From contig VGLO01000003.1 of NCBI GenBank assembly GCA_016866675.1, positions 1-32,552 on the forward strand: DNA of 32,552 nucleotides. Reading direction: 5' to 3'. The translations under genes were made by a program, and so were the position numbers. This DNA is from Candidatus Staskawiczbacteria bacterium (GTDB taxonomy: Bacteria > Patescibacteriota > Minisyncoccia > Minisyncoccales > Staskawiczbacteraceae). The first letter of the stretch is position 1. Each line of letters opens with the position of its first letter. The notes under the pieces were generated by a model. The model made no database searches. It saw nothing but the letters and a program-made list of their open reading frames with translations, and was not told where the DNA came from. Of this stretch, positions 5,257-27,557 are shown piece after piece.

Positions 5257-6952
5257 TAAAAATTCCGATAAAGTAAGAGAGGCTTTTGAATTTGCAAAAG
5301 AGATTTACAAAGACAGGAAATGGCTTTCTGGAAAAGACTTATACATTGACCATGTATTGAGAATGGCAATTACTCTAAAAGAGCTGGGCATTGATGAGAC
5401 GACTATCATGGCCAGTTTTTTGTATGGCGTAGCTGACACATCCTTATTTTCTCCTCAAGAAATAAATACAGAAGAAATTGAAAAAAAGTTTGGCAAAGAA
5501 GTAGCTTATCTTGTGAAAAAATCCTCCGACCTTAATAAAACTTACTACTCCTTTAACATTAGCCGTGGCAAGTACGACAAATTTGGAAAAGAAAAAATGG
5601 AAAACATTAAGAATATGTTTTTTGCTATGGCCAAAGATTTGAGAGTTGTTCTTCTTAAGATAGCCTCAAGGCTTGATGGTTTAAAAAGAATAGAATTTAT
5701 TTCAGATGAAACCAGAAGGCTTTACTCTATAGAAACTCTTTACATATTTGTGCCTATTGCCAATCGGCTAGGACTAGGAGAGATAAAAACCCAATTAGAA
5801 GACTTAGCCTTTGCCAATATTTACCCAGAAGATTTTAAGTGGATAGAAGAAAATATCAAAGAAAAGTACGAGGAGCGTAAAAAGTACTTGGAGAATTTTA
5901 TGCCAAAGCTAAGAAAGCTCTTAAAAAAAGAAGGGATATCTTTTCTAGATATTGGATATAGAGCTAAATCATACTGGAGCACATACCAAAAACTTCAACG
6001 CCACCAAATGGATTTTGAAAAGATATACGACTTGGTTGCCTTAAGAATAGTTGTTAAAGATATATTTTCTTGTTATAAACTGCTTGGCATTATTCATAAA
6101 AACTTTCAGCCAATGTCAGGGCAAATACAAGACTATATTGCAAAGCCCAAAGAAAACGGCTACAAATCACTCCACACAACTGTTTTTCTTGATGAAAATG
6201 AAATTTCTGAAATACAAATTAAAACAGATCAGATGCATAAAGATGCAGAACACGGAATTTGTGCTCACTGGGCATACAAGGAAAAAATAAACCTTCATAA
6301 AGAAGAAGAAAATTTAAAATTTGCGAAGGAGCTTCCTGAATTTTGGAAAAGTTTTAAAATTGATTTTTTCGACAATAAAGTTTTCACTTTTACTCCAAAA
6401 GGAGATGTAATTGTTTTACCAAAAGGGTCAACCTCTGTTGATTTTGCTTATGCAATACATTCTGAAGTTGGAAATCATTGCGAAGGAGCAAAAATAGATG
6501 GAAAAATTATCCCCCTATCTCGCCCATTAAGCAATGGAGATATTGTTGAAATAATTACCAGCAAGAAGAAACAACCGTCTTTAGATTGGTTAAAATTTGT
6601 AAAAACCAGCTTTGCAAAGTCTCATATCAATAAAATTATTTCTGCTACATTTTCACCAATTTTTTCTGTGCCAACTTTTATCGGAAAAAAAATCATTGGC
6701 ATTGTTAAAAAACCTCATAAAGAAGTAAAACCACAAAAAAAGTTAAAAACTACTGAAGTCTATATTGGCAAGCAAAAAGGCATATCATATAGCTTGGCAA
6801 AATGCTGTCTTCCAAAAGCCGGAGATAATATAAATGCTTACATAGGAAAATCTGGATCAGCTGTTTTACATAGCACTTCATGTAAAAATTTTAAAGAAGT
6901 ATCTAAAAAATTTCCCGAAAAAATAGTTGGTGCCACTTGGCATGAGAGCTAA
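5222..6952 (+). CDS. RelA/SpoT homolog with (p)ppGpp synthetase, TGS and zinc-finger domains; degenerate HD domain, no ACT domain
   Basis: YDLVALRIVV, DYIAKPKENGYKSLHT, EIQIKT, AEHGICAHWAYK; TGS (VFTFTPKGD...DFAYAIHSEVG); AKCC..P..GD. Confidence 0.9.
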   Translation: MQTQIQKLIKSSKNSDKVREAFEFAKEIYKDRKWLSGKDLYIDHVLRMAITLKELGIDETTIMASFLYGVADTSLFSPQEINTEEIEKKFGKEVAYLVKKSSDLNKTYYSFNISRGKYDKFGKEKMENIKNMFFAMAKDLRVVLLKIASRLDGLKRIEFISDETRRLYSIETLYIFVPIANRLGLGEIKTQLEDLAFANIYPEDFKWIEENIKEKYEERKKYLENFMPKLRKLLKKEGISFLDIGYRAKSYWSTYQKLQRHQMDFEKIYDLVALRIVVKDIFSCYKLLGIIHKNFQPMSGQIQDYIAKPKENGYKSLHTTVFLDENEISEIQIKTDQMHKDAEHGICAHWAYKEKINLHKEEENLKFAKELPEFWKSFKIDFFDNKVFTFTPKGDVIVLPKGSTSVDFAYAIHSEVGNHCEGAKIDGKIIPLSRPLSNGDIVEIITSKKKQPSLDWLKFVKTSFAKSHINKIISATFSPIFSVPTFIGKKIIGIVKKPHKEVKPQKKLKTTEVYIGKQKGISYSLAKCCLPKAGDNINAYIGKSGSAVLHSTSCKNFKEVSKKFPEKIVGATWHES

Positions 6953-6970
6953 AATGTGGTAAATTATTGT
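6951..6970 (+). repeat. Left copy of a perfect 20-bp inverted repeat (AAAATGTGGTAAATTATTGT)
   Basis: Exact reverse complement at 8098-8117; contains an extended -10-like TGgTAAATT. Confidence 0.9.
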
Positions 6971-6990
6971 ATTGAAACATGTAATATAAA

Positions 6991-7040
6991 CCTGCCCGGG
7001 TGGCGGACCTGCCTGCCGGCAGGCAGGATTGGCAGACCCA
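6991..7040 (+). repeat. Duplicate of the tRNA-Leu 5' end, interrupted by a 20-bp perfect palindrome
   Basis: CCTGCCCGGGTGGCGGA[CCTGCCTGCCGGCAGGCAGG]ATTGGCAGACcCA versus CCTGCCCGGGTGGCGGAATTGGCAGACgCA at 7289-7318; palindrome at 7008-7027. Confidence 0.93.
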
Positions 7041-7045
7041 TAATT

Positions 7046-7285
7046 ATGAACTATTATGTTTATGCCCTAAAAAGCATTAGTAGAAACTATATTTATGTAG
7101 GAATAACTAATAATTTAGAAAGAAGGATTAGACAGCATAAAAATGGAAAAGAAGCTACAACTAATCCATATCGCCCATTTGAAATAATTTTAACAGAAAC
7201 CTATAATACGAGATTAGAAGCCAGACAAAGAGAAAAGAAGTTAAAATCTGGTTACGGAAAAGAATATTTAAAAAAACTTGTATAG
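7046..7285 (+). CDS. Small GIY-YIG nuclease (UPF0213-like), 79 aa
   Basis: YYVYAL...YIYVGITNNLERRIRQH...EARQREKKLKSG. The ATG at 7046 is preferred because the 6956 extension runs through the tRNA fragment and palindrome. Confidence 0.9.
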   Translation: MNYYVYALKSISRNYIYVGITNNLERRIRQHKNGKEATTNPYRPFEIILTETYNTRLEARQREKKLKSGYGKEYLKKLV

Positions 7286-7291
7286 AATCCT

Positions 7292-7378
7292 GCCCGGGTG
7301 GCGGAATTGGCAGACGCACGGGACTCAAAATCCCGCGATCGCAAGGTCATGTGGGTTCAACTCCCACCCCGGGCACCA
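7292..7378 (+). tRNA. tRNA-Leu(CAA)
   Basis: Acceptor GCCCGGG/CCCGGGC, anticodon arm CGGGA-CTCAAAA-TCCCG, long variable arm, T arm GTGGG-TTCAACT-CCCAC, discriminator A and encoded CCA. Confidence 0.98.
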
Positions 7379-7402
7379 GAATAGAACTTAACACAAGAAA
7401 AT

Positions 7403-7434
7403 AAAAAAAGCTCCGAGCAAAATCGGAGCTTTTT
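7403..7434. terminator. Bidirectional intrinsic terminator between the convergent blocks
   Basis: AAAAAGCTCCGA-gcaaaa-TCGGAGCTTTTT: 12-bp stem with T runs on both strands. Confidence 0.88.
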
Positions 7435-7439
7435 GGTTT

Positions 7440-8060
7440 TCAAACAATGAATTCGGTCAGCTTTTCATAGACCGCCCCATTGTCATCAGCTTTGTAGACA
7501 CAAATCTTTTGAAGCGGAAATGACAAATCAATAGGCGGTGTTTCTGGATTAATTTCCGGTACTTTACCTTCTTGGTAGCGAGTTAAAGTCACATGTGGAC
7601 GAAATAATTTATGTGCCAAATCATATCCGGTTTCCTTGGCGTTATTCTGTTGCGCCTCAGTATAGGGTGTAAAGTACCCCTCTTCATAGGGCTGGCCCGG
7701 ATTGATTCTATATTCCTTAAGCTCACTGATCAGCTTTTCATGAAGTGCGACAAATGGAGTTGATTTTTCGTAGGATACCTCAAAATATCGCCCTTTGGTC
7801 ATAAAGTAACCTGTGTGCTTGCACAAGAAAGATTTAGCTCCCTCCATTAAGCCACCAACTGATTTTAAGATATTGGGTATTTGGTCATTAGAAAAACGAG
7901 CCATATAGACTGTCATATGAGGAAACTTTGTTTCCCCATCCAAAACAAACATTGTGCCATCTGACTTAAGTGACTGGCTGATATTTACACACTCAACCCC
8001 TACTTGATCAGAGGGTATGACACAAATATTGATGATTGTAGAATTATCCGGTTTATTCAT
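7440..8060 (-). CDS. 2H phosphoesterase superfamily protein (2'-5' RNA ligase / cyclic phosphodiesterase-like)
   Basis: Two HxT motifs about 108 aa apart: FPHMTVY and FRPHVTL. Confidence 0.8.
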   Translation of the reverse strand: MNKPDNSTIINICVIPSDQVGVECVNISQSLKSDGTMFVLDGETKFPHMTVYMARFSNDQIPNILKSVGGLMEGAKSFLCKHTGYFMTKGRYFEVSYEKSTPFVALHEKLISELKEYRINPGQPYEEGYFTPYTEAQQNNAKETGYDLAHKLFRPHVTLTRYQEGKVPEINPETPPIDLSFPLQKICVYKADDNGAVYEKLTEFIV

Positions 8061-8097
8061 TGCAATAACCTTTCTTAAAATAAGTGGTAAGAACTAG

Positions 8098-8117
8098 ACA
8101 ATAATTTACCACATTTT
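8098..8117 (-). repeat. Right copy of the 20-bp inverted repeat
   Basis: ACAATAATTTACCACATTTT is the reverse complement of 6951-6970. Confidence 0.9.
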
Positions 8118-8127
8118 TTGAATAGAA

Positions 8128-8718
8128 TCAATTAATTAACTCTCTTAACTCTCCCCTTTCTAAAGACTTTATACTTCTGTGCATATTCGAAGACTTGTTT
8201 TTAAATTGTGTTTCTAATATTTGCAAAACATCACCGTGAGAAACTAACAAAATTTTCTTTTGTTGATATATTTTTTCTAAGTCATCAATAAGAGATACCA
8301 CTCTATTTTTGACATTTTCTACAGATTCTTCATTATATTCTGGTTGCCTATTATTACTATCATTACTCCATACTTTTTGATAATTATTTGTACCTGATTT
8401 ATCAAGACTACCAAACCAACGCTCCCTTAACCTCTCATCAATATTAATTTCAATTTTTATACCCAATAATTCTTTAGTAATTTCTGCTGTTCTTTTGCAT
8501 CTAGAAAACGGTGAACAATAAATTATTACTTCACTATCAAGTATTTTTGATTTTTTAGAGTTTTCTATAGAAGTACTTACCTGCTTTTCACCATTTTTAG
8601 TTAACGAATATTCTTCATTAATTGCGTCCTCTAAATTACTTACTATAATCTCTGCTGTGTTTGCCTTGCTCTCTCCATGCCTTAAGGCAAAATATTTGTT
8701 TTTAAGTTTACTAAACAT
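8128..8718 (-). CDS. Histidine phosphatase (phosphoglycerate mutase-like) family protein
   Basis: LRHGES, SPFSRCKRTA, LRERWFG, LLVSHGD. Confidence 0.92.
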   Translation of the reverse strand: MFSKLKNKYFALRHGESKANTAEIIVSNLEDAINEEYSLTKNGEKQVSTSIENSKKSKILDSEVIIYCSPFSRCKRTAEITKELLGIKIEINIDERLRERWFGSLDKSGTNNYQKVWSNDSNNRQPEYNEESVENVKNRVVSLIDDLEKIYQQKKILLVSHGDVLQILETQFKNKSSNMHRSIKSLERGELRELIN

Positions 8719-9214
8719 ATAATTTTAATAAATTTATAACAATAAAAGAAATAAACCCAGAAAAAATACCGGCCAAAACATCCAAGGGCCAATGCACGCC
8801 ACAAAATATTCTGGATAATGCTATAAAAAAGCTTACAGTACAAAAAAGCAGTCCAAGTGTTAGATTATAAGGTAAAATTGAAAACGATAAAGCAAAGAAA
8901 ACAGCTGTATGACTTGATGGAAATGAAGGGTATTGAGGTTTTTTGACTAGAGAATTAACCTCTAAAACTTCTTGAGGTCTTTTTCTTTTATATATCTGGT
9001 AAATGGATTGATTAATTATAAACCTAGCAAAAAGCATTGCCAAAAACGGAAAAATTAAAATTTTAATATCTCTATAAAAAAGAGCATATAAAATTATAAT
9101 CAAAATTAAGAAGTACCCTGCGTAAACGGCAAATATTTTTGCAAAAAAATCCAAAAGATTATATTTTTTTGCGTACCCGTTAATTAACTTAAATAAATGT
9201 AAATCTAATTTCAT
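8711..9214 (-). CDS. PAP2-family membrane phosphatase (undecaprenyl-pyrophosphate phosphatase-like)
   Basis: KRKRP, SFPSSH and [13 protein letters not shown] motifs; hydrophobic helices. Confidence 0.9.
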
Positions 9215-10455
9215 TTAGGCAAAGGAAACTTTTTACATAGATTTTTAACTTCCTGACTTATTCTTTTTACCAAATAAGGTTTTGATATGACCTCATTTAT
9301 CCAACCTGCAATTTTTTTCATTTCTTTTTCTTTCATCCCCCTTGTGGTAATGGCTGGAGTGCCCATTCTTATTCCAGATGGCTTAAACGGAGAAGCTGTA
9401 TCATACGGAATACTATTTCTATTGGTAGATATTCCAATACTTTCAAGAAGATTTTGAGCATCTAATCCCGTAATATTTTTATTCCGCAAATCAATCAATA
9501 TTAAATGATTATCAGTGCCACCACTTACAAGATTAAACCCTAATTTACTTAGCTCTTCTCCTAAGGCCTTTGCATTTTTCACAACCTGAGATGCATATTT
9601 GCCAAACGCGGGTGTACTAGCTTCTTTTAAGCAGACTGCGATTGCAGCTATTGAGTTTTCGTGAGGGCCACCCTGTAATCCGGGGAAAACAGCTTTATCA
9701 ATTTTTTTTGATAAATCAGGGTCTTTCTTTAATCCCTTCTTTGTCACCATAATTAGGCCTCCCCTTGGCCCTCTTAATGTTTTATGTGTAGTTGTGGTCA
9801 CAATATCAACATATGGCACAGGGCTTGGATAAACTCCTCCGGCCACTAATCCGGCAACGTGAGCAATATCAGCTACCAAATAAGCTCCCACAGAGTCTGC
9901 AATTTTTCCTAATCTTTTCCAATCAAGTATTCTTGAATAAGCAGAGAATCCCAGCCAAATTAGCTTTGGTTTGTGCTCTTTTGCCAATTTTTCAAATTCT
10001 TCATAGTTCATCAAGTGGGTTTTTTCATATACTCCATAAGATACAGCATTAAAAAATTTTCCCGAAAAACTTACTTTGGCTCCATGAGTCAAATGCCCAC
10101 CCATAGAAAGAGCCATTCCCATAATAGTATCTCCTGGGTCACAGGTGGCCATGTATACTGCGGCGTTTGCAGGAGATCCTGAATGTGGTTGCACATTAAC
10201 GTACTCAACCCCAAAGAGCTTTTTTGCCCTTTCAATGCAAAGATTCTCAACTTCATCAATGAATTGGTTTCCGCCGTAATATCTTTTGCCCGGATATCCT
10301 TCTGCGTATTTGTCGGTCAAAAGCGAGCTCAAGGGTTCTCGCACAGCAGAAGAACAGTGGTTCTCAGAAGGAATCATTTGCAGAGTTGTCTTTTGGCGGT
10401 TAGTTTCCAATTCAATCAATTTTGCTACTTTTTGATCATTATTTTTTAACTTCAT
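9211..10455 (-). CDS. glyA: Serine hydroxymethyltransferase
   Basis: [50 protein letters not shown]. Start placed at MKLKNN (10455) because the upstream extension crosses a terminator. Confidence 0.98.
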
Positions 10456-10490
10456 ATGTTTTATTCTCATTATTCTATCATTTTTTATAC

Positions 10491-10533
10491 AAAAAAACAG
10501 CGGCCATTCAAGTTGTAAAACCCAAATAGCCGC
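10491..10533 (-). terminator. Intrinsic terminator of the GC-rich solitary gene
   Basis: Minus strand GCGGCTATTTGGGTT-TTAC-AACTTGAATGGCCGC-TGTTTTTTT: a 15-bp stem that closes fully only with G-U pairs on this strand. Confidence 0.85.
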
Positions 10534-10592
10534 CTTCATTGCTCGTCTCAACTCTCGCTTTGCGAGGTTTCGTCGAGCAACCCTTATGCCTG

Positions 10593-11318
10593 CTACGCCA
10601 CGCTTGCGCGTTGCTTCGCAGGCAGGACACGTACGGAACGAGAGCGGATATGACTGCCGGAACTGCCCACACCACAGCTGTGGACCTGGACCTTGCCGAA
10701 GTCAGGATACCAGAACATGCACGGCACGCGACCATCCACATCGCGCGAGGCAGGACAGAGTGTCAAGTTCTCGTGATCGAGGTGTTCGCCCGTAGTCAGG
10801 AAGAAAGCCAGTTCCAGAAGCTCGCGCTCCAAGAACGTCATTCCGCGATGGCCTTCCCCATCAAGCTGGTTGGTGGATTTGCCGGCATTTTCCTCATCGG
10901 CCTCCACCACGGCGCGAACACTGATGGCGTAACTGCCATTGGCCGGGTCGCGATCGTTACGCTTGGAGATTTTCTGATCCAGGTTGTCCCCGTACAAGGA
11001 ATATCCACCGCAGCGTTCCTTGATCACGTTCCACACCTTGTTGCGGATGAGACTCTTGGGCACGTAGATAGCCCACTGACCAGCTGGTGCCGCCTCAAAC
11101 TGGTCCACGACCTCTTGGAACTCCTTTTACATGCCGAGTGCCTGACCAACAGCTTTCCAGTTGAGAACAACTGGGAGGTTGGCCGGCTCTGGCCAAGGGT
11201 TCTCCTTGCGGAGAAACTTCTTGGTGGCTTCGAGCCACTCACTTCCATCTTCCCCAGAGAGCTTCTGGAGAAGATCCTCAACTGGTCCACGAACATCGCA
11301 GAGCAGTAACCGACTCAT
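10593..11318 (-). pseudogene. GC-rich gene (241 codons) split by one in-frame TAA; resembles CPR DGR-target-like proteins
   Basis: ORFs 11127-11339 and 10593-11108 share a frame (...GGC ATG TAA AAG GAG TTC CAA GAG GTC GTG GAC...). SD AAGGAG precedes ATG 11318. About 58% GC in a counted line. The family resemblance is from recall. Confidence 0.7.
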
Positions 11319-11394
11319 GTCAGTCTCCTTGTCCCACAAAATGGGACTAAAATGAACAGTACCGATAAAGCCCGATGCTTTACCTTACGATTTA

Positions 11395-11423
11395 ATTATA
11401 CATCTTTATCTTATTATTGTCAA
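11395..11423 (-). promoter_or_regulatory. Perfect sigma70 consensus promoter TTGACA-N17-TATAAT
   Basis: -35 at 11423-11418 (inside the tsaC 3' end), -10 at 11400-11395. Confidence 0.85.
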
Positions 11424-11969
11424 GTATCCTTTTGTGAGATCTATAATTGTTGAGGGTTGTGACTTTTTTAAATTCCCCCCATCAATAATAAGTATATCTT
11501 CTTTTCCAAAAACTTTTTCTATTTCTCTTGAGCCAATCATACTTTCACTTCCTGAAATATTTACGGATGTCTGCACTAAAGGCTTATTTATTTTTTTTAG
11601 TAAATTATTTAAAAATTTGTATTTAGGAATTCTTATAGCAATAGTGTTTTTATTAATACCATAAATCTTTACCTCTGCTTTTCTTTGTAAAATAAACGTA
11701 TATTTCCCTGGCCAATGCCCTTTTAGTGTTTTCTCCTGGTCTTTGCTTATTTCTGCAAACTCTTTTGCCATTTTTAAATCTTTAACAAAAACCGGTAAGG
11801 GTTTTGATTTTGGTCTTTTTTTTATTTTATAAATTTTTTCAACGGCTTTTTTATTTGAGGCATCAGCCAAAAATCCATAGACGGTATCTGTTGGACAAAT
11901 AATAACGCCTCCACTTTTTATTTCTAAAATAGCCTCATTAAGCGCTAGTTTTTCCTTTATTACTTTCAT
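11406..11969 (-). CDS. tsaC: L-threonylcarbamoyladenylate synthase (TsaC/YrdC/Sua5 N-domain)
   Basis: PTDTVYG, KIYKIKKRPKSKPL, WPGKYTFI, TSVNISG, PSTIID. Confidence 0.93.
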   Translation of the reverse strand: MKVIKEKLALNEAILEIKSGGVIICPTDTVYGFLADASNKKAVEKIYKIKKRPKSKPLPVFVKDLKMAKEFAEISKDQEKTLKGHWPGKYTFILQRKAEVKIYGINKNTIAIRIPKYKFLNNLLKKINKPLVQTSVNISGSESMIGSREIEKVFGKEDILIIDGGNLKKSQPSTIIDLTKGYLTIIR

Positions 11970-12699
11970 TTTTTAAAAATTCTTCAAATTTAGATACATC
12001 TTCTGGTCTGCCAAAATCCATCCAATAATCAGTAAATCTTTTTACTTTTACTTTATTTTCTTTGGCCAACAATGATATTGCGTCTGTAATTTCATACTCT
12101 CCTCTTGGAGACTTTTGGAGATTAAAAATTTTATCAAAAATAACTGGTGTAAATTTATACAAGCTTGTATTAATTAAGTTGCCAATAAATTCCTTTGGTT
12201 TTTCTACAATTTTTTCCAAATATTCCCCTTTTTCAACTAAAACTCCAAATTTTTCTGGACTACTACTTTCAACTCCAGCCACATAGCAGTATTCATCGTT
12301 TATATTTAATGCCACGAGCTGATCTTTTGTGTAGAAGTTATCTCCTACTAGTGAGATAAAATTTTCTTTGCCCACAATATCTTTAACGCATTTTATAGGA
12401 CATGCCGTGCCATACTCTTTTTCTTTTGGACCTAAAATATCAAATTGATTTACAATTTTTATATTTGGAGTTTGGTTTTTAAAACTATAAGTTTTTAAAA
12501 ACTCACTTATCATGTCTTCGCGAAATCCTACCACCATAATAATTTCTAAATAACCGGCACTCAAAATATTATCTAATAAATAGGCTAAAAATGGCCTGTC
12601 CTTTACTTCAATTAAGTGTTTTGACTTATCTTTTGAAAGGTCTAACATTCTTGTGCCTTGCCCCGCAGCTGAAATTACAACCTTCTTTATACTATTCAT
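11938..12699 (-). CDS. Sugar-phosphate nucleotidyltransferase (RmlA/GlmU N-domain-like)
   Basis: VISAAGQGTRM, IVEKP, SPRGEYEITDA, WMDFG. Confidence 0.88.
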   Translation of the reverse strand: MNSIKKVVISAAGQGTRMLDLSKDKSKHLIEVKDRPFLAYLLDNILSAGYLEIIMVVGFREDMISEFLKTYSFKNQTPNIKIVNQFDILGPKEKEYGTACPIKCVKDIVGKENFISLVGDNFYTKDQLVALNINDEYCYVAGVESSSPEKFGVLVEKGEYLEKIVEKPKEFIGNLINTSLYKFTPVIFDKIFNLQKSPRGEYEITDAISLLAKENKVKVKRFTDYWMDFGRPEDVSKFEEFLKNESNKGKTSA

Positions 12700-12701
12700 A
12701 A

Positions 12702-15179
12702 TTAAATAACTATATTAATCAATTTATCTTGAATAAATATTATTTTTTTGGGCTTATTTTCTTTAACCCATTCTTTTATTTTTTTGCTATCTAGAGCTAA
12801 ATTTTCTGCTTCTCCTTGAGTTAATCCAGAAGATGCTTGAATTTTATCTCTCACCTTTCCATTAATCTGTACTATAATAAAAACTTTTTCCTCTTTTAAA
12901 AGCTTTTCATTGTACTTTGGCCATTTTTGTTGACTACAAAAACCTGCAAATCCAACCACTTTCCAAAGCTCTTCTGCCAAATGCGGTGCAAACGGAGAAA
13001 GAATTACTAAAAATTTTTTGAAATCTTTTTTACTTAAACCAACGCTTGAAATCTGTCCCGATTTCTTCGAGGATCCTCGATTTATTTGCAATCGGGACCA
13101 CTCATTTACAAACTCCATAAGAGAACTTACTGCTGTGTTAAACTTCATTAACTCAATATCTTCTCCAACTTTTTTGATAGTTTTATTGAGTAAAATTTTC
13201 AAACTTTCATCGCTTTCACTTTTTGAAATTTTATTATGAGTTAAATTATAAACCTTTTCCAAAAATCTTCTGCAACCAACAACTCCCTTTTGATCCCATG
13301 GAATTTGCTGTTCAAAGGGACCAATAAACATTTCATAAACCCTAAGAGTGTCTGAGCCGTATTGCTTTGCAACAATATCTGGATTCACCACGTTCCCCCT
13401 TGATTTTGACATTTTAATACCGCCCTCTCCAAGAATTACTCCATGTGAAGTTCTTTTTTTATATGGTTCTGATCCAACGGACTCTGGGACAGCTAAAATA
13501 TCATACAAAAATTTAAAAATAAATCTTGAATAAAGAAGATGCAAAGTTGTGTGCTCCATACCTCCGTTATACCAGTCAACCGGAAGCCAGTATTTTAAAA
13601 TTTTATTATCAGCTAGCGCTTTATTATTTTTTGGATCGGTGTACCTCAAAAAATACCAATTTGATCCAGCCCAATTTGGCATAGTATCGGTTTCTCTTTT
13701 GGCTGGACCTCCACATTTTTTACATTTTACATTAACCCATTTTTCAATTGAGGCCAGAGGAGATTCACCCGTATCTGTTGGTTGATATTTTTTTACATTT
13801 GGCAATTCAACTGGAAGATCTTTCTCTGAAATTGTCTGCCAATCGCAGTTTTGACAAAAAATCATTGGGATGGGTTCGCCCCAGTAATGTTGTCTTGAAA
13901 ATATCCAATCCCTTAATTTATAACTTGTCTTGGTATTGGCAAGATTTTTTTCTTTTAACCATAAAATAATCTTAGTCTTAGCTTCAGATGATTCCAATCC
14001 ATCAAATTGCATTGAGTTGTGCAAAACTCCTTCACCTTCATAACATTCTTCTAAATTCTTTACCTTATGTGAAAACTCCTCATCTTTCGGAATAATTGAA
14101 GTTCTTAAAGGAATGCCGTATTTTTTTGCCAACTTAAAATCTCTTTTATCGTGAGCATCAGCAAAAACAGCCCCTGTTCCATATTGCTCTAAAACAAAAT
14201 CAGCAACCCATATTGGCATCTCTTCATTTGTAGCTGGGTTTCTAGCCAAAACACCTTTTAGCTCAATACCAGTGACATCTTTCTCTAAGTTGGACCTTTC
14301 AATATCTGGAGTATTTTTTGCTTTTTTAATATATTCTAAAACTTGGCTTAAATTTTCTATTTTATCTTTATGTCTTTCAATAAATTTATGCCCCGGAGAT
14401 AAAATTAAATAAGTTCCAGAAAAAATTGTATCAATTCTTGTTGTAAAAACCTCTATTGGGTCTTCAAATCCTTCTACCGGAAACTTTACAATGGCTCCTT
14501 CTGACTTTCCAATCCAATCTTTTTGCTGAATTTTAACTCTTTCTGGATAATCAACCATATTTAAATCCTCTAGCAATCTTTCGGCGTAATTAGTAATTCT
14601 TATCAACCATTGTTCCTTTTCTTTTTTCTCAACATCTGCGCCACATCTTTCGCATTTTCCAGAAATTACTTCTTCATTGGCTAATACAATTTTATCTTTG
14701 GGGCACCAATTAACCAGCATCTTATCTTTATAGGCAAGACCGTTTTCAAAAAGTTTTATAAAAATCCATTGTGTCCATTTATAATATTTTGGATCTGTGG
14801 TATTTACTTCTCGTGCCCAATCAAGTGACAAACCAAGCATTTTCATTTGCTTTCTAAAATTGTCTGTATTCTTTTTTGTGGCCAAAACAGGATGAATTCC
14901 TTTTTTAATTGCATAATTTTCTGTTGGTAATCCAAAAGCATCCCACCCAATAGGGAATAAAAGGTTATAGCCCTGCATCCTTTTCTTACGAGCAATTACA
15001 TCTAAACCAATATATGGCCTACAATGACCCACATGCAAACCATCTCCCGAAGGATAAGGAAACTCAAATAAAAGATAAAATTTCTTCTTTTTTGAGAAGT
15101 TTTTTGCTTTAAAGTCACCTGACTTATACCACTTTTCCTGCCACTTTTTTTCTATTTGCTGTGGATTATATCTCTTCAT
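12702..15179 (-). CDS. leuS: Leucine--tRNA ligase
   Basis: FPYPSGDGLHVGH, GWDAFGLPTEN, FTTRIDT (CP1), DWIFSRQHYWGEPIP, KMSKS, VQINGKVR; start MKRYNP. Confidence 0.98.
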   Translation of the reverse strand: MKRYNPQQIEKKWQEKWYKSGDFKAKNFSKKKKFYLLFEFPYPSGDGLHVGHCRPYIGLDVIARKKRMQGYNLLFPIGWDAFGLPTENYAIKKGIHPVLATKKNTDNFRKQMKMLGLSLDWAREVNTTDPKYYKWTQWIFIKLFENGLAYKDKMLVNWCPKDKIVLANEEVISGKCERCGADVEKKEKEQWLIRITNYAERLLEDLNMVDYPERVKIQQKDWIGKSEGAIVKFPVEGFEDPIEVFTTRIDTIFSGTYLILSPGHKFIERHKDKIENLSQVLEYIKKAKNTPDIERSNLEKDVTGIELKGVLARNPATNEEMPIWVADFVLEQYGTGAVFADAHDKRDFKLAKKYGIPLRTSIIPKDEEFSHKVKNLEECYEGEGVLHNSMQFDGLESSEAKTKIILWLKEKNLANTKTSYKLRDWIFSRQHYWGEPIPMIFCQNCDWQTISEKDLPVELPNVKKYQPTDTGESPLASIEKWVNVKCKKCGGPAKRETDTMPNWAGSNWYFLRYTDPKNNKALADNKILKYWLPVDWYNGGMEHTTLHLLYSRFIFKFLYDILAVPESVGSEPYKKRTSHGVILGEGGIKMSKSRGNVVNPDIVAKQYGSDTLRVYEMFIGPFEQQIPWDQKGVVGCRRFLEKVYNLTHNKISKSESDESLKILLNKTIKKVGEDIELMKFNTAVSSLMEFVNEWSRLQINRGSSKKSGQISSVGLSKKDFKKFLVILSPFAPHLAEELWKVVGFAGFCSQQKWPKYNEKLLKEEKVFIIVQINGKVRDKIQASSGLTQGEAENLALDSKKIKEWVKENKPKKIIFIQDKLINIVI
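13055..13098. repeat. Nested palindromic element inside leuS
   Basis: GTCCCGATT...AATCGGGAC arms enclosing the perfect palindrome TCGAGGATCCTCGA (13067-13080). Confidence 0.75.
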
Positions 15180-15211
15180 ATAATTTGATAATGTTATCAC
15201 GATTTATGGGT

Positions 15212-15242
15212 AAAAAAAAGTCCTGCCATTCATTGGCAAGAC
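15212..15242 (-). terminator. Intrinsic terminator of the 148-aa solitary gene
   Basis: Minus strand GTCTTGCCA-atgaa-TGGCAGGAC followed by 8 T. Confidence 0.85.
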
Positions 15243-15263
15243 ATTGCAAAATCTGTCAATTCT

Positions 15264-15710
15264 TTACTCTTCTTTTTCAAAAGGCTTGAGAAACGTGAGT
15301 GATTCTCTCCTCATTAATCCATTACCTGGCAAAGTTGCCCAAACCCCTACAAGCCGTGGGCCCTGCTTAATCTTATACAAATTAACTCCTTTTATTTGTT
15401 TTCCACCTTCAGCAGTTATAGACCAACTAACCGCCAAATTTTCTCCTTGGCGAATTCCAACTCCAGAAAAATTGGACAACCCCATGTTCCAAGATACAAC
15501 ATAAATTTCGTTAACCTTTGCAATAGTAGCTACTCCGGTGTAAGTCTTACCGCTTGCTTCATTTCCTTTGCAGGTATAGTAGCCATCAATATCAAATAAA
15601 ATTTCTTCTGCCGATATTTTTTTGACTGGCACATCTTTTTGATGAGCAGGCTCTAATTCAGCCATAAAAAATACCATCATTGAAACAATAGACTTCCAAG
15701 GACAACGCAT
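15264..15710 (-). CDS. Hypothetical protein, probable small beta-barrel, possibly exported
   Basis: Strong SD GGAGG 5 nt before the ATG, own terminator, strand pattern GYYTCKG...YTGVATI...YVVSW...GVGI...LAVSW...LVGVW. Confidence 0.75.
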   Translation of the reverse strand: MRCPWKSIVSMMVFFMAELEPAHQKDVPVKKISAEEILFDIDGYYTCKGNEASGKTYTGVATIAKVNEIYVVSWNMGLSNFSGVGIRQGENLAVSWSITAEGGKQIKGVNLYKIKQGPRLVGVWATLPGNGLMRRESLTFLKPFEKEE

Positions 15711-15781
15711 GGTGGCCTCCTAAAAAAGTGTCAACGAGCGAATTGGTTTATTGTATTCCTTAATAATTTTTTTTCAATACT

Positions 15782-15942
15782 GAGTCTAGTTAATAATGCT
15801 CTTTCGAAAGATTTTGAAAAAATATTGAGCGAGAATGTGATAGAACGAGAAGGACTACCCATAGGGTAATCTGCCAAGTTATAGCGCATTCGCAGCCAAT
15901 ATTTTTGCAAAAGATGCGGATATGGCATTATTTACTAGACTC
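15782..15942. ncRNA. Long imperfect inverted repeat: candidate rod-shaped ncRNA (6S-like) or MITE
   Basis: 17/18 outer arms, 15/16 inner arms, further partial pairing and an apical TACCC-ATA-GGGTA hairpin. The structure is seen; its identity is not established. Confidence 0.4.
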
Positions 15943-15946
15943 TAAA

Positions 15947-16768
15947 CTAAATTAAAAATAGATTCTTTGCGTTTTCTGTGGTTTTTTCACAGACTTTTTC
16001 AAAGCTAACATTTTTTAGTTCTGCGATTTTTTTAATGGTATGTTTAATAAATATTGGCTGATTTCTTTTTTCTTCTGCCGTTGGAGGAGTTAAGTATGGG
16101 CAATCGGTTTCAACTAAAATATTTTCTAAAGAAACTTCCTTAATCACTTCATCAATATTAAACTTGAAAATTATGCCATTAATTCCAATGTAAAAACCCA
16201 TCTCAATGTATTTTTTAGCTTGTTCTAAGCTTCCTGTAAAACAATGTATTACACCTCTCTTTTCTCCTCTTCTTTTAAGTATTTCTATTACATCATCATG
16301 TGCTACTCTGCAATGCAAAATAACAGGAAGATTTAATTCTTTTGCCAAATCCAATTGCTCATTAAAAATTCTCTTTTGCTTTTCTTTAAACTGTTGAAGT
16401 TTTAAAGCAGTTTTGGGTTTATAATAGTAATCTAAACCAATCTCGCCAATAGCTAAAACTTTCTTTGATTTTGCCAAATCTCTATATTTTTCTTTATCAA
16501 ATTCATTTTCTTGAATTAAAAATTCTTCCTCGTTTGGGTCTGTTTTTATTTTTATAAATTCAGAGGCTGAATACATTGGATGCAATCCAATTGAAGCAAA
16601 AACACCCTGCTCGTACTTTTCTGCCATTCCAACGGCACTTTTGCTTGTTTCGTATTTAGTGCCAACATTTATTATCTGAATATTTTCAGATAAAGTTTTT
16701 TTGACAACCAAATCCGCATCATCTTTGAATGCATTAAAATTTACGTGGCTATGTGTATCAATTATCAT
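15947..16768 (-). CDS. tatD: TatD-family deoxyribonuclease
   Basis: IDTHSH, GLHP, AIGEIGLDYY, LPVILHCR, GVIHCF, LVETDCPYL; metG-tatD synteny. Confidence 0.95.
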   Translation of the reverse strand: MIIDTHSHVNFNAFKDDADLVVKKTLSENIQIINVGTKYETSKSAVGMAEKYEQGVFASIGLHPMYSASEFIKIKTDPNEEEFLIQENEFDKEKYRDLAKSKKVLAIGEIGLDYYYKPKTALKLQQFKEKQKRIFNEQLDLAKELNLPVILHCRVAHDDVIEILKRRGEKRGVIHCFTGSLEQAKKYIEMGFYIGINGIIFKFNIDEVIKEVSLENILVETDCPYLTPPTAEEKRNQPIFIKHTIKKIAELKNVSFEKVCEKTTENAKNLFLI

Positions 16769-16786
16769 GTTTTTGTATTTTAAATG

Positions 16787-16820
16787 AAAAAGTGGGCAAT
16801 CGCAATTGCGATTGCCCACT
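16787..16820 (-). terminator. csrA terminator: perfect 30-bp palindrome plus T run
   Basis: AGTGGGCAATCGCAA/TTGCGATTGCCCACT (16791-16820), followed on the minus strand by TTTT. Confidence 0.85.
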
Positions 16821-16842
16821 AGTTGTTTGCTGATGGCGAATA

Positions 16843-17052
16843 TTACTCGCCAGGCTTTGGCAACGTGGAGGGTGCGGGCTCTGCACCCGGCTTGCCATAG
16901 ATAGCCTCGTACACCTCGTTGCGGTGCACTGGAACCTCCTTTGGCGCCACAATGCCAAGGCGCACCTTGTCGCCTCGGATATCCACCACGGTGACCGTGA
17001 TGTCATTGTTGATGACGATCCTCTCGTTCTTCTTGCGAGACAATACCAGCAT
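16843..17052 (-). CDS. csrA: Carbon storage regulator CsrA/RsmA, 69 aa
   Basis: MLVLSRKKNERIVINNDITVTVVDIRGDKVRLGIVAPKEVPVHRNEVY is the full CsrA signature; SD GGAGG 8 nt upstream; about 60% GC. Confidence 0.96.
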   Translation of the reverse strand: MLVLSRKKNERIVINNDITVTVVDIRGDKVRLGIVAPKEVPVHRNEVYEAIYGKPGAEPAPSTLPKPGE

Positions 17053-17120
17053 TGTCGAATCCTCCGAAAGGGTGTGATGTGCCAAGCCCTCAAGGTGGCT
17101 TGACGAAGTGTTCTACTTAT

Positions 17121-17149
17121 TTTCTAACAAATTTATATTATTTTGTCAA
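17121..17149 (-). promoter_or_regulatory. Candidate csrA promoter TTGACA-N17-TAGAAA with TGn extension
   Basis: -35 at 17149-17144 inside the metG 3' end; the -10 is imperfect. Confidence 0.55.
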
Positions 17150-18571
17150 CCTTAGAAACAAAATTATAGACTCTGTTTTTTCTAGAGATAATTTAATTTT
17201 TTCTGAAGTTTCTGGTAAAAATATTTTTAGTATTTCTGAAATTTCACCTAAAGAAAATAATACATCCGAAATAACCTGAGAAGAGTTGCCTTTTTCTTCC
17301 CATGGCTTTTCTTCGTTAATATATTTGTCACAATGAGAAATAAGCTCCCAAATAGATTTTAAGGCATCATTAAACTTAAACTCACCTAAAAAGTCATTAT
17401 ATTCTTTTTTATACTTTTCTGTCTCACTCTTTATCTTTTCAGTTGGTTTTAAGTTATTAAAAACAGGTTTTTTAGCTAAAGTGACCGTTCTTGCCAAAAG
17501 GTTTCCGATACCACCTGCCAAGTCAGAATTATATCTTTGCTCAAATTTTTCGTAGGTGAAATCTCCATCTTCTGTGGGAGTAATTTCTCTTAACAAGTAA
17601 TATCTAACAGCATCTGTGCCATATTTTTTAACCAACTCAACTGGATCAACAACGTTTCCCAGAGATTTTGACATTTTTTGATTTGCTACAGTTAAATAGC
17701 CGTGAATAAAAATTTCACTTGGCAAAGAAAGACCAGCAGACATTAGCATTCCTATCCAATAGACAGCATGGAAACGAGATATCCCTTTTCCAATTACATG
17801 TAGTTTGTTTTCGTTTTCCTGCCACCAAATTTTAAAATTATCTTCATCGTCAGCATATCCTAAGGCATTTATATAGTTTGATAAAGCATCAAACCAAACC
17901 CAGATTTTTTGACTACTATCATCTGGCACATCAATGCCCCATCCACGAGACCTTTCAGATGATCGTGATATACATATATCTTCAATTCCAGAATTAATAA
18001 AACTTAGTATTTCGTTTTTTCTTTTTTTTGGAATAATCTTTAATTTATCCCCTTCAATAAGCTCTTTTATTTTATTTTGATACTTTGAAAGTTTGAAAAA
18101 ATAGTTTTCTTCTTCAATTAATTCTGGCTTTGTCTTGTGTTCTACACAAAGTCCATTTTGTAATTCACTTTCTTTATAAAATTCTTCGCACCCTACACAA
18201 TAAAGACCTGTATATTTTTTCTTATATATATCATCCTTACAAGCTAACCATAACTTTTTTGAACCTTTAATATGTCTTTCTTCTGTGGTTCTAATAAATT
18301 CATCATAAGACAAGCTAAGTGATTTTTTAAGGTTTTTAAAAACATCTGCATTTTTTGCAACTAAATCCTCCGTTGATATGCCCTCTTTTTCTGCAGATTG
18401 AACATTTTTTAGTGAGTTTTCATCTGACCCAGTCAAGAAAAAAACATCTTCTTTTAGAGACCTGTGATATCTGGCAACAACATCTGCCTGAATTTTTTCT
18501 AGAGCGTGTCCCAAATGAGGAGAGGCATTAACATAGTCAATTGCTGTTGTAATGTATAATTTCTTTGTCAT
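17138..18571 (-). CDS. metG: Methionine--tRNA ligase (short form, no C-terminal tRNA-binding domain)
   Basis: YITTAIDYVNASPHLGH, YCVGCEEF, WVWFDALSNY, KMSKSLGN. Confidence 0.97.
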   Translation of the reverse strand: MTKKLYITTAIDYVNASPHLGHALEKIQADVVARYHRSLKEDVFFLTGSDENSLKNVQSAEKEGISTEDLVAKNADVFKNLKKSLSLSYDEFIRTTEERHIKGSKKLWLACKDDIYKKKYTGLYCVGCEEFYKESELQNGLCVEHKTKPELIEEENYFFKLSKYQNKIKELIEGDKLKIIPKKRKNEILSFINSGIEDICISRSSERSRGWGIDVPDDSSQKIWVWFDALSNYINALGYADDEDNFKIWWQENENKLHVIGKGISRFHAVYWIGMLMSAGLSLPSEIFIHGYLTVANQKMSKSLGNVVDPVELVKKYGTDAVRYYLLREITPTEDGDFTYEKFEQRYNSDLAGGIGNLLARTVTLAKKPVFNNLKPTEKIKSETEKYKKEYNDFLGEFKFNDALKSIWELISHCDKYINEEKPWEEKGNSSQVISDVLFSLGEISEILKIFLPETSEKIKLSLEKTESIILFLRLTK

Positions 18572-18626
18572 ATAATAAAAATATAGCTATTGTTATAAAT
18601 ACTAAATCATTATTAACAAATCTTCA

Positions 18627-19106
18627 ATGATATTATTAGTTCACATGCTCTTTGGGTCAGCAATTGGATATACAGTATATTCCCTCACAAACCAAATTTG
18701 GTTGTCATTTTTACTGGCTTTTTTAAGTCACTACTTTTTAGATTTATTTCCTCATATTGAGTATTTGGCATCCACTGAAGATTCTGTTAAAAAATTAAAA
18801 AGCAAATCCCCAAAAGAATACCTACCAGACCTTTTTAAAGTAATTGTCGACTTTTTATCTGGCATACTTTTAATATATTTTGTTTCAATTGACCAGCCGT
18901 ATATTTATTTTTGCGCCATTATAGCAATATTGCCAGACGGACTCACTGTCATAAACTCTCTGTTTGAAATTAACATTCTTAAAAAACATCACTATTTTCA
19001 CGGAAAAATTATTCACTTTTTAAAGTATAAAAAAATCTCCAAGTTTTGGAGAATCTCAACTCAAGCGACTGCATTTATAATTAGTATTTACCTTTTACTT
19101 CTCTAG
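18627..19106 (+). CDS. Membrane protein, possible metal-dependent hydrolase (YdjM-like His motifs)
   Basis: HMLFG, SHYFLDLFPH and LPD motifs in hydrophobic helices. Confidence 0.6.
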   Translation: MILLVHMLFGSAIGYTVYSLTNQIWLSFLLAFLSHYFLDLFPHIEYLASTEDSVKKLKSKSPKEYLPDLFKVIVDFLSGILLIYFVSIDQPYIYFCAIIAILPDGLTVINSLFEINILKKHHYFHGKIIHFLKYKKISKFWRISTQATAFIISIYLLLL

Positions 19107-19108
19107 GG

Positions 19109-20134
19109 CTAATCTACTAAAACAGCTTTTCTCTTTTCTAAAAACTCTTTTGTGAACTCGTAAATTATTCCAAAAACGGGCACAACAAAAATTACTCCCA
19201 AAATACCAAATATCTTACCTCCAATAAGTATCGCAATTAAAACTAAAACAGGTGGCAAATCCAAAAACTTTTTCATAAGTATTGGTGTCACAAAGTTGTT
19301 TTCAATACTTTGTATTATGGTAAGAGCAATTACAATATATACTGCAACAAACCAAGAGCCTGAAACTCCAACAAACAAAAGAACTAAAATTGCAGTTACC
19401 AGTGGCCCTATAAAAGGAATGAATGTTAGTGCTCCTGAAATTAAAGCAAGAATAAAGCTGTACTTTACTCCAAACAAAATGAAAACTATAAATGACATTA
19501 TTCCAACAAACAAACATGCCAAAACTCTGGCTCCAAACCACCCTGCAACCTTAATTTGAGATCTCTCAAATATGTTTAATATTGTTTGTTCGTATTTTTT
19601 AGGAGACAAAAGAGTTAAAAACCTTTCTGTAGATTTATTTGCCAAAGAGATATAAAAAGCAAAAACAAATATTATTGAGGTTGAAACAACGCCTCCAAAA
19701 AAAACTGTGATGGCCCTTATAATACTTCCAGAGCTTTCCTCTAGTTGAGTAATTAGATTTTTTGTAAACTCCTCAAAATTTCTTGTGACTTCAAGGCCCA
19801 AGCTATTAAGTACTGGATTTGCCTTTTGAAAATAAGTTGGTATATTATTGCTAAATTGCTTTAATTCAAACACAAAAACTGGAGCTGTAATGTAAACCAT
19901 AAGCCCAACTGCACCAAAAATTGCAGAATAAACAGCAATTACTGCAATAACTTTTGGCACTTTCAACCTTACTAGAAAGGCCACCGCAGGCTCCAATAAA
20001 ATTGATATTATTAAAGCAAAGAAAAACCATACTAAAATATCTCTTGCCAAAAACAAAAGATACAAAACAAAACCAGTCATAAAAACCTTTAGTATAGTCT
20101 GCCAAGAAATATCCAGTGTTTGCCTATTTTCCAT
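19109..20134 (-). CDS. AI-2E family transporter
   Basis: Multi-TM protein with FIPFIGP, QSIENNFVTPILM, LPPVLVLIAILIGG...GILGVIFVVP. Confidence 0.92.
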   Translation of the reverse strand: MENRQTLDISWQTILKVFMTGFVLYLLFLARDILVWFFFALIISILLEPAVAFLVRLKVPKVIAVIAVYSAIFGAVGLMVYITAPVFVFELKQFSNNIPTYFQKANPVLNSLGLEVTRNFEEFTKNLITQLEESSGSIIRAITVFFGGVVSTSIIFVFAFYISLANKSTERFLTLLSPKKYEQTILNIFERSQIKVAGWFGARVLACLFVGIMSFIVFILFGVKYSFILALISGALTFIPFIGPLVTAILVLLFVGVSGSWFVAVYIVIALTIIQSIENNFVTPILMKKFLDLPPVLVLIAILIGGKIFGILGVIFVVPVFGIIYEFTKEFLEKRKAVLVD

Positions 20135-20150
20135 AGTATAATAGTAAAAA

Positions 20151-21428
20151 CTATATCTTTAATATTTTTTCTAGGCTTTCTTTATCTTTTTCATCAAAGG
20201 GTCCAATTACAGATAGATTCAATTTTTCGTTTTTGAAAATATCTTCTGCTACATTCTTTATATCACTTAAAGAAACTTTATCAATCATCTCAATCTTTTC
20301 CTCTGGAGTTAAAACTTTTTCACCCATTACTTCCTGCATTGCATAAAATGAAGCCTTGCTATCTGTTGAGTCTAAAGATAGTGAAGTGGCTCCCCTTAAA
20401 TAGTCTTTGGCCTTTTGAAGCTCTTTCTCAGTAATTCCATTTTCGCTTAAGTCTTTGTATTCTTTTAAAACCAAACTCACTGCTTTTTCTAAGCTATCGT
20501 TTTTAATTCCAGCTTGTGTAACCAAATAACCAGCATCCGTTGTACCATCGTAAGATGTGTTTACATAATAGGCCAACCCATTCCTCTCTCTTACAGAAAT
20601 AAAAAGCCTAGAGCTCATATTACCCCCAAGTACCACTGAAATTATCTTTAAAGCATATCTTCTTGGGTCATACATATCATATGCCCTTACACCCAAGCAA
20701 AAATGAGTTTGGTCTGTTTTTTTATAGTGAAGCAAAATGCCCGGACTTTTTTGACTCTCCAATGTTTTTAGTTTTTCTGGACTCTCTCTTATTTCTATTT
20801 TTGAAAAATAATTTCTTACTTTTTCTTCAATTTCTTTTGAATTAACATCTCCTGCAACACAAACAACCGTATTTTCATTGGAGTAATGACTATGATAATA
20901 ATTCAAAAGCTTCTCTCTTGTATAATCAAGTATAGTTTGCTTTTCGCCTACAATTCTCCAGCCAGCTGGTTGGTCACCATAAAGTAAATCCTCAAAAAGC
21001 TCTGAAACATGTGAAGTTGGGGTATCTAAATACATATTCAATTCCTCAATAACAACTCCCTTTTCTCTTTCTAATTCGTCTTTATCAAACTTTGAGTTTA
21101 AAAACATATCTGAAATCCAGTCCAAAGCTACATCTGTGTGCTTCTTATCTACTTTTGCCCAAAACCCTGTCACCTCTTTTGAGGTAAAAGCATTGTATTG
21201 ACCACCAATTCTGTCTAAAGTTTCAGAGATAGTTAGAGTATCTGGCCTTTTCTCTGTCCCTTTAAAAAACATATGCTCTAAAAAGTGAGACATCCCATTA
21301 ATATCTTTCGTTTCGTACTTTGAACCAGTCCCCACCAATATTAAAACCGTCACGCTGTTTGCGTTTTCAACTGGAATAGTAATCAATCTTAACCCGCTAT
21401 CTAATTTTGTTTTTTTATAACTTTCCAT
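20151..21428 (-). CDS. M16 family zinc peptidase
   Basis: Inverted zincin motif HFLEHMFFKGT, NAFTSKE, LGGNMSSRLF..VRERNGLAY. Confidence 0.95.
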   Translation of the reverse strand: MESYKKTKLDSGLRLITIPVENANSVTVLILVGTGSKYETKDINGMSHFLEHMFFKGTEKRPDTLTISETLDRIGGQYNAFTSKEVTGFWAKVDKKHTDVALDWISDMFLNSKFDKDELEREKGVVIEELNMYLDTPTSHVSELFEDLLYGDQPAGWRIVGEKQTILDYTREKLLNYYHSHYSNENTVVCVAGDVNSKEIEEKVRNYFSKIEIRESPEKLKTLESQKSPGILLHYKKTDQTHFCLGVRAYDMYDPRRYALKIISVVLGGNMSSRLFISVRERNGLAYYVNTSYDGTTDAGYLVTQAGIKNDSLEKAVSLVLKEYKDLSENGITEKELQKAKDYLRGATSLSLDSTDSKASFYAMQEVMGEKVLTPEEKIEMIDKVSLSDIKNVAEDIFKNEKLNLSVIGPFDEKDKESLEKILKI

Positions 21429-22701: not shown

Positions 22702-22707
22702 TAATTG

Positions 22708-22736: not shown

Positions 22737-22737
22737 T

Positions 22738-27553: not shown

Positions 27554-27557
27554 ACTA

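Follow-up and report, generated by a model that had tools for sequence, protein, structure and literature searches.

The question raised by this locus is why short genes with Shine-Dalgarno (SD)-like motifs and terminators of their own should lie between the AT-rich housekeeping genes of a Candidatus Staskawiczbacteria bacterium, a member of the Candidate Phyla Radiation (CPR), and whether such genes belong together. The window analyzed is the whole of contig VGLO01000003.1 (32,552 nucleotides), from a genome of 916 kb in 138 contigs which is rated 100% complete and has a GC content of 34%. An initial annotation of positions 10,491 to 17,149 had described three solitary minus-strand genes, here called gene 1 (11318-10593), gene 2 (15710-15264) and csrA (17052-16843), as cassettes of one common kind, perhaps acquired from a GC-rich host or acting inside a host cell. 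The idea of a common kind was not borne out, as the three genes are unrelated. We consider it probable that the region consists of three separate accessory genes, namely the relic of a gene once targeted by a diversity-generating retroelement (DGR), a gene for an exported beta-barrel protein, and csrA, the last two being of old planctomycete descent.

Three minus-strand genes between AT-rich core genes

Two GC islands were found in the window, at 10486-11348 and 16775-17114, with a GC content of 0.55-0.61 against 0.26-0.35 around them in windows of 200-300 nt. The claim that two of the three genes are GC-rich therefore stands for gene 1 and csrA, although the coding sequences measure 0.57-0.58 rather than 0.58-0.62. 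SD-like motifs are present at all three genes as annotated (AAGGAG at 11330-11325, GGAGG at 15720-15716 and GGAGGA at 17065-17060), as are dedicated intrinsic terminators (16820-16791, 10534-10499 and 15242-15220), which all rank among the top four of the window. The terminator scan returned 24 candidates at 1-20000 compared with 14.0 +/- 4.5 in shuffled sequence, and 6 at 20001-32552 compared with 6.9. With respect to TTGACA promoters, those of gene 1 (a 12/12 match) and csrA (with a weak -10 box) were retained, while the TTGACA 20 nt ahead of the ATG of gene 2 was rejected as its promoter. Each gene would form its own promoter-to-terminator unit set between AT-rich core genes, which are themselves tightly packed, overlapping or abutting.

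As had been reported, the window lacks any transposase-like open reading frame (ORF), and the nearest thing to a flanking duplication is an unconvincing AT-rich pair of 12 nt with one mismatch; integrase families were not scanned. An integron cassette origin was rejected by eye, likewise with no integrase scan made, because promoters belong to the genes themselves and the element 3' of gene 1 is unlike an attC core. The islands were also considered as structured RNA and rejected, since they are coding and tRNA-Leu is the sole Rfam match in the window at the gathering threshold.

Gene 1 is a probable relic DGR target gene

The features of gene 1 are as follows.

11395-11423, minus strand: promoter of the DGR-target-like gene (TTGACA, 17 nt spacer, TATAAT)
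11319-11394, minus strand: 5' leader, with the hairpin GTCCCA-TTTT-GTGGGAC (11347-11331), AAGGAG (11330-11325) and 6 nt to the ATG
11127-11318, minus strand: N-terminal 63 codons of a variable-protein homologue, then the in-frame TAA (11129-11127)
10593-11126, minus strand: rest of the frame, a predicted C-type-lectin-like domain with the conserved RSRSV end and the stop TAG (10595-10593)
10499-10592, minus strand: 3' element, with GGGTTGC (10583-10577), an 8 bp stem to GCAAT, an inner hairpin, and a long hairpin with T-run (10534-10499)

The promoter (11423-11395) is the sole 12/12 match to TTGACA-N17-TATAAT in the 32.5 kb window, and its layout recurs ahead of the copies in relatives, whose leaders also contain the motifs TAAGGTG, TGTTC and AAGGAG; the leader hairpin was read from the sequence, without folding statistics. 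The description of gene 1 as a solitary gene holds insofar as a single frame runs from 11318 to 10593, but this frame is interrupted by the TAA at 11129-11127. The N-terminal piece aligns to the N-terminus of the intact homologue P0002 with 70% identity, and the TAA sits where P0002 and a second intact homologue, P0003, have Glu (GMEKEF). Taken together, the pieces of 63 and 171 amino acids align end to end with intact homologues of 237-238 amino acids at 64-70% identity, the C-terminal part being homologous to the variable repeat of relatives.

Of 36 genomes of the same family, 16 contain the gene 1 family in 1-5 copies each, compared with none of 24 genomes of other families. A search of 5.8 billion proteins returned 9 matches, among which Staskawiczbacteria was the sole organism name, and a genome scan returned one match, labelled CPR. 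By these searches the family appears to be restricted to the CPR and was found solely in this CPR family. It has no Pfam match. A downstream repeat of the 3' end of the gene was present in 11 of 22 loci of relatives (6 of 8 in a first set, 5 of 14 in a further set). The eleven repeat matches printed are 60-133 nt long and 79-90% identical, and nearly all mismatches are A in the downstream copy, an adenine bias typical of DGR template repeats. An ORF resembling a reverse transcriptase (RT) is next in all five loci inspected, as judged by eye and not by a Pfam scan.

An AlphaFold2 (AF2) model was made for P0002, which is 68% identical to gene 1, and reached a predicted local distance difference test (pLDDT) score of 84.4. 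All 50 fold matches listed for the model were of the C-type lectin/formylglycine-generating enzyme (CLec/FGE) type, with a best Z of 7.7. Among them are three variable proteins of known DGRs, namely TvpA (Z 7.3), Mtd (5.9) and TaqVP (5.0). As in the systems of Mtd, TvpA and TaqVP, the relatives of gene 1 have a 3' variable repeat, an adenine-biased template repeat, an RT-like ORF and a hairpin after the target. Also among the closest known systems is the CPR-restricted DGR clade 2 described by Roux et al. 2021 (PMC8144416).

Nine loci share both the RSRSV end and the GGGTTGC...GCAAT stem-loop, and RNAalifold on 9 copies picked by eye gave 23 pairs for the 3' element, 13 of them with compensatory changes; the terminator scan counted 16 pairs in the gene 1 terminator. 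In phage BPP-1 a hairpin just 3' of the variable repeat is described as required for DGR homing (PMC3240598), and by analogy the gene 1 element may be its counterpart. Unlike the BPP-1 hairpin, it is longer and starts about 10-50 nt past the conserved end rather than directly after the repeat.

The window copy differs from known DGR targets in having a premature stop and neither a template repeat nor an RT. No repeat of the gene 1 island was found anywhere in the 916 kb genome, no DGR-type RT lies beside gene 1, and RVT_1 matches are confined to contigs C97 and C38, outside the window; glyA directly follows gene 1. Gene 1 is probably a relic DGR target gene. Because template repeat and RT have been lost and a nonsense codon is present, its diversification must have ceased, and the gene is probably in decay and presumably without function. 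The region would show a DGR target after loss of its retroelement.

Some results count against this interpretation. Translation of gene 1 beyond its TAA is conceivable, by read-through or by a restart at GTG 11108. A nearby template repeat is missing from 9 of the 14 loci in the further set of relatives and 2 of the 8 in the first, and because many loci of relatives share this lack, orphan copies may have a function of their own. The fold matches of the P0002 model are middling (best Z as above), with no Foldseek match at E<=1e-3, and a PDB sequence search with the gene 1 family found no similarity to solved DGR proteins. Remote targeting of orphan copies was rejected, as the orphans in genomes G003, G004 and G000 have no counterpart among the template repeats of their respective genomes.

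Several further observations concern DGRs in this lineage. The genome has an apparently complete DGR of its own on contig C14, with a GC-rich target gene at 565-1341 (216-258 amino acids) and a repeat at 112-249; the target 3' end (567-704) is 85% identical to 112-249, and 19 of 21 mismatches are at template adenines. C14:1-102 repeats C14:1337-1438. An RT frame of 338 amino acids lies at the end of contig C38 (4920-5531), which may join C14. A second RT, possibly of a group II intron, is at C97:329-1048 in an open frame of 696 amino acids. A second conserved leader type of variable-protein genes (loci L060, L066, L071, L022, L064 and C14), a long hairpin AGTCATAGCCA...TGGCTATGACT followed by GCCACTTCGG, differs from the leader type of the window copy. 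After each template repeat there is a conserved hairpin AAAGGAGTTTT..AAACTCCTTTT (L020 2377-2410, L022 2281-2320, L023 2312-2345), which differs from the element after the target gene.

csrA is a conserved gene of the family with a putative leader hairpin

The third gene of the region has the following features.

17121-17149, minus strand: csrA promoter, with TTGACA (17149-17144), 17 nt spacer and TAGAAA (17126-17121)
17053-17120, minus strand: csrA leader, with a hairpin at 17104-17081 (CAAGCC/GGCTTG), GGAGGA (17065-17060) and 7 nt to the ATG
16843-17052, minus strand: csrA of planctomycete type, 69 amino acids (Pfam CsrA, 7e-26)
16791-16820, minus strand: csrA terminator, a perfect 15+15 palindrome then TTTTT

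csrA encodes an RNA regulator that recognizes GGA motifs, and its PF02599 match covers residues 1-51, corresponding to profile positions 1-51 of 53. csrA was found in 31 of the 36 genomes of the same family and in none of the 24 genomes of other families. The promoter was read by eye and had not been listed by the promoter scanner. Twelve printed loci (11 relatives and the window) were compared. A TTGAC-N17 promoter with TATAAT-like hexamers is common to all of them, as is a leader hairpin with compensatory stem changes (by eye), and an SD-like, GGA-containing motif lies 5-9 nt ahead of the ATG in 12/12 leaders. GGA was seen in the hairpin loop in 10/12 loci (by eye), and a stem with T-run follows the stop in 11/12, the remaining locus (G016) having a second csrA copy directly after the first. 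The loci measure 0.43-0.62 GC versus 0.30-0.46 in their flanks. In several of them tatD comes next; here csrA is situated between metG and tatD, with the barrel gene (gene 2) on the far side of tatD.

For E. coli, CsrA is reported to repress glgC through two sites and also to repress its own mRNA (PMC7652899). The csrA leader resembles that of E. coli glgC in having a hairpin and then a GGA motif at the ribosome-binding position. By this analogy of layout CsrA may bind its own leader, at the hairpin and GGAGGA, and would then repress its own mRNA by steric block of the start region. Unlike E. coli, this organism has no anti-SD and so no SD to occlude, and the setting is unusual for CsrA in that a planctomycete-type gene lies in a CPR genome in which no FliW was found (PF02623, 0 matches; the control search was positive in B. 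subtilis and Thermotoga). Three features of the window copy and its relatives count against the proposed account of csrA: the -10 box TAGAAA is weak, the hairpin loop of the window copy has GAGGG only and no GGA, and RNAalifold found no consensus structure on the alignment of csrA leaders.

Gene 2 is predicted to encode an exported beta-barrel

Two features were assigned to gene 2.

15264-15710, minus strand: barrel gene, 148 amino acids, preceded by GGAGG (15720-15716)
15220-15242, minus strand: intrinsic terminator of the barrel gene, 9 pairs then TTTTTTTT

In the window the barrel gene has a GC content of 0.39 and a GC content at third codon positions (GC3) of 0.31. It belongs to no Pfam family, although the family is large, with 1006 cluster representatives at E<=1e-3. 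The AF2 model (pLDDT 88.6) has an N-terminal hydrophobic helix and 8 antiparallel strands in an up-and-down barrel. Foldseek with this model returned up-and-down barrels, the best being 1jju_A at 1.7e-4, while a PDB sequence search gave nothing useful (a match at E=0.048). The product is predicted from the model to be a small exported eight-stranded beta-barrel. It is like the calycin-type barrels (lipocalins, fatty acid-binding proteins and the 1jju_A domain of quinohemoprotein amine dehydrogenase) in having 8 antiparallel strands, here with an N-terminal helix in front, and to judge from this fold it probably binds a ligand. Unlike lipocalins, fatty acid-binding proteins or 1jju_A, it has no family-level sequence match. 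The gene is found 3' of tatD in 4 of the 36 family genomes, where it measures 0.46-0.59 GC versus 0.39 here.

The spacer from tatD to the barrel gene is filled by an imperfect palindrome of 161 nt (15782-15942), 70% self-complementary, which overlaps a probably spurious ORF of 65 amino acids (15731-15928).

csrA and the barrel gene are closest to Planctomycetota

The taxonomy of best matches pointed to Planctomycetota, mostly Gemmataceae, for both csrA and the barrel gene. Among species-representative genomes CsrA is up to 89% identical to planctomycete CsrA over all 69 residues, the normally variable tail GKPGAEPAPST included, and most of the best 80 genome loci are titled Planctomycetota. 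In these 80 loci planctomycete csrA has a median GC content of 0.55 against 0.56 in its flanks. The G016 orthologue of the barrel gene is 86% identical in amino acids and 81% in nucleotides to a Gemmataceae gene, with similarity confined to the coding sequence. Since csrA and the barrel gene would descend from Planctomycetota of Gemmataceae type, a donor-like, GC-rich codon usage is to be expected of them. The DGR gene is restricted to the CPR and its GC-richness has another cause than planctomycete descent. Acquisition from a GC-rich source, as had been proposed for the cassettes, is therefore supported for csrA and the barrel gene with their planctomycete relatives but not for gene 1, which is restricted to the CPR and has relatives with an AT-rich RT; that the donor was also the host is unproven.

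Plain recent transfer, which would have left near-identical copies, does not apply, the best nucleotide identity to candidate donors being about 79-81%. csrA orthologues differ at 59% of fourfold sites versus 12% of the protein, and for synonymous codons the csrA difference amounts to 0.54 among family members and 0.57 against planctomycetes. The association with tatD is retained among relatives, and csrA occupies a conserved locus in the family. With synonymous sites saturated and gene order shared, the transfers are judged not to be recent. The two genes would have been acquired anciently and then fitted with promoters typical of the lineage. The hosts of most Parcubacteria are unknown, and two neighbouring genes of planctomycete type offer a testable lead. 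In the planctomycete loci csrA and the barrel gene are not neighbours (within 1.2-1.5 kb). A csrA and a barrel gene of the same type also occur in records titled Saccharibacteria (L127) and Uhrbacteria (L157). In L127 the promoter and leader are of the style seen here and the flanks are AT-rich, and L157 is 0.57 GC throughout and may be misbinned.

The proposed descent also faces difficulties. Most csrA copies stay GC-rich while diverging (47-96% G+C at saturated fourfold sites), with some copies drifted towards AT; the native preference is A/T, EF-Tu having 91% A+T at these sites. Because saturated fourfold sites stay GC-rich, simple old transfer followed by amelioration does not predict this persistence. 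The csrA tree, on 73 columns, does not resolve, so that how many transfers took place, and in which direction, is judged from distribution and composition. Five planctomycete genomes were searched for three further GC-rich genes of this genome (C26, 458 amino acids; C15, 453; C2, 242) and gave no match, and two of the three also had no match in the close-relative scan.

SD-like motifs persist in a genome without an anti-SD

The 16S rRNA of the genome ends ..GGATCATTTTTTT, without an anti-SD. In a survey of 22 loci from the order, 4 of which lacked the anchor, CCTCC was absent from the 3' end in all 18 readable cases (10 of the same family and 8 of other families). Loss of the anti-SD has been described for a subgroup of Parcubacteria (Tsurumaki et al. 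2022, PMC9297842). Because the 16S rRNA has no anti-SD, the SD-like motifs cannot act canonically.

As a description, the second gene class proposed in the initial annotation was confirmed genome-wide. By a crude longest-ORF caller, spurious ORFs included, SD-like 5-6-mers precede 58 of 1041 ORFs, and their frequency rises from 18/648 at GC3 <0.30 (2.8%) to 16/94 at GC3 >=0.35 (17%). A terminator-like hairpin within 90 nt was found for 22 of 56 SD-like ORFs (39%) versus 117 of 870 without the motif (13%). The AGCAC-type start motif occurs in 21% of SD-like ORFs versus 5% of the others. In eight other GC-rich gene units that were printed and inspected by eye, a stem with T-run was seen in 8/8, TTGAC-N17 in 4/8 and a purine-rich motif in five or six. 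Further GC-rich genes (GC3 0.60-0.80) lie at C26:710-2086, C15:13242-14621, C2:22537-23458, C26:7813-8499, C16:683-1006 and C1:53458-54006; one of these six has a Pfam match (DUF218), all six are followed, by eye, by a stem with T-run, and four have an upstream TTGAC-N17. Annotators of CPR genomes should take GC islands, private terminators and SD-like motifs as signs of accessory or imported genes and not of contamination.

What conserves GGAGG-type motifs where ribosomes cannot pair with them is a question raised by these results, with CsrA as an obvious candidate. Counts of AGGAG-N5-9-ATG were compared with those of the same pattern with N20-24, giving a near/far ratio of 1.51 where csrA was found (32 family genomes), 1.34 in the 5 family genomes lacking a csrA match and 1.19 outside the family (24 genomes). 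This gradient agrees with CsrA as a reader, but it is not exclusive and is confounded by kinship, and CsrA as sole reader was rejected.

Alternative explanations

The strongest competitor of planctomycete descent, in our estimate unlikely, is an intrinsic force which keeps the cassettes GC-rich and A-poor, either selection on RNA stability or structure or GC-biased gene conversion, with donor ancestry incidental. In both islands the GC-rich stretch extends approximately from transcript start to terminator, and the CPR-restricted DGR target family is 0.40-0.58 GC beside an RT of 0.25-0.41; a whole target gene that is GC-rich next to an AT-rich RT is unlike known DGRs. All GC-rich genes share one pattern at fourfold sites, C>G>T>A, with A at 0.05-0.19 versus 0.38-0.47 in core genes, and csrA holds its composition despite saturating synonymous change. 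Translational selection as the source of this pattern was rejected, EF-Tu showing the opposite preference. Against an intrinsic force, the composition equals that of the planctomycete relatives, and AT-drifted copies exist (the barrel gene here at 0.39, csrA of G002 at 0.43, and two variable-protein copies at 0.40-0.43).

Somewhat less likely is recurrent gene flow from planctomycetes, in which donor DNA repeatedly replaces copies at fixed loci, so keeping them GC-rich, and which would suggest a durable physical association. Within the barrel tree, G016 and G008 fall inside a planctomycete group (99/99), and G000, G025 and G004 group apart in a clade of their own; the gene follows tatD in all five. 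The family's barrel genes formed one clade in 0/200 bootstrap trees, and the csrA tree pairs single CPR rows with different planctomycete rows at support of 80-81. However, the approximately unbiased (AU) test does not reject a single origin (p = 0.054), no pair is closer than about 81% in nucleotides, the smallest fraction of synonymous csrA codons differing from any planctomycete copy is 0.30-0.47 and so no lower than between planctomycetes (0.35), and faster change in AT-drifting copies can mimic two origins.

A wider conjecture, which we regard as doubtful, is that Parcubacteria of Staskawiczbacteria type drew genes more than once from Gemmataceae-type Planctomycetota as physical partners or hosts, and that the imported CsrA reads GGA motifs as a private regulatory code and not as ribosome-binding sites. 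If true, the surviving SD-like motifs of the GC-rich cassettes would be a CsrA-read regulatory code in translation without an anti-SD.

It is very improbable that the SD-like motifs and GC-rich codons are a host dialect, used because the mRNA or protein acts inside a host cell. SD-like motifs in a genome without an anti-SD, codon usage opposite to that of EF-Tu, and a donor-like composition matching a possible host phylum would suit such a role. On the other hand, these genes could be linked to no export signal or machinery, CsrA works as a regulator in the cytoplasm, gene 1 is broken, and the promoters are the lineage's own. None of the results argues for action of the mRNA or protein inside a host cell. 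CsrA is listed among the highly expressed genes of ultra-small prokaryotes (PMC9938205).

Finally, the islands could be artefacts of assembly or binning, planctomycete reads stitched into a CPR contig, as the sharp GC contrast, the planctomycete-like proteins and the lake metagenome source might suggest, but this can be set aside almost entirely, as chimerism is excluded by independent contigs of the other runs X3, X4 and X5 which bridge the AT/GC junctions with 0 differences (all runs being lake-water metagenomes of one year that may share one campaign), independently assembled relatives have the same gene order, and the promoters and leaders are of the CPR-lineage type. Record 10 of X3 (11024-11487) also has the in-frame TAA of gene 1.

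Neighbouring genes

Pfam identified the neighbours as SHMT (glyA), Sua5/YrdC, NTP-transferase, LeuRS (leuS), TatD (tatD), MetRS (metG) and an AI-2E transporter. The names dprA and glyQS given in the initial annotation were replaced by these assignments, and AI-2E agrees. At 11838-11964, the junction between sua5 and the NTP-transferase gene, a deeper contig in all four runs swaps 125 nt for 40 other letters; this alternative contig probably derives from a related strain or species from the same lakes.

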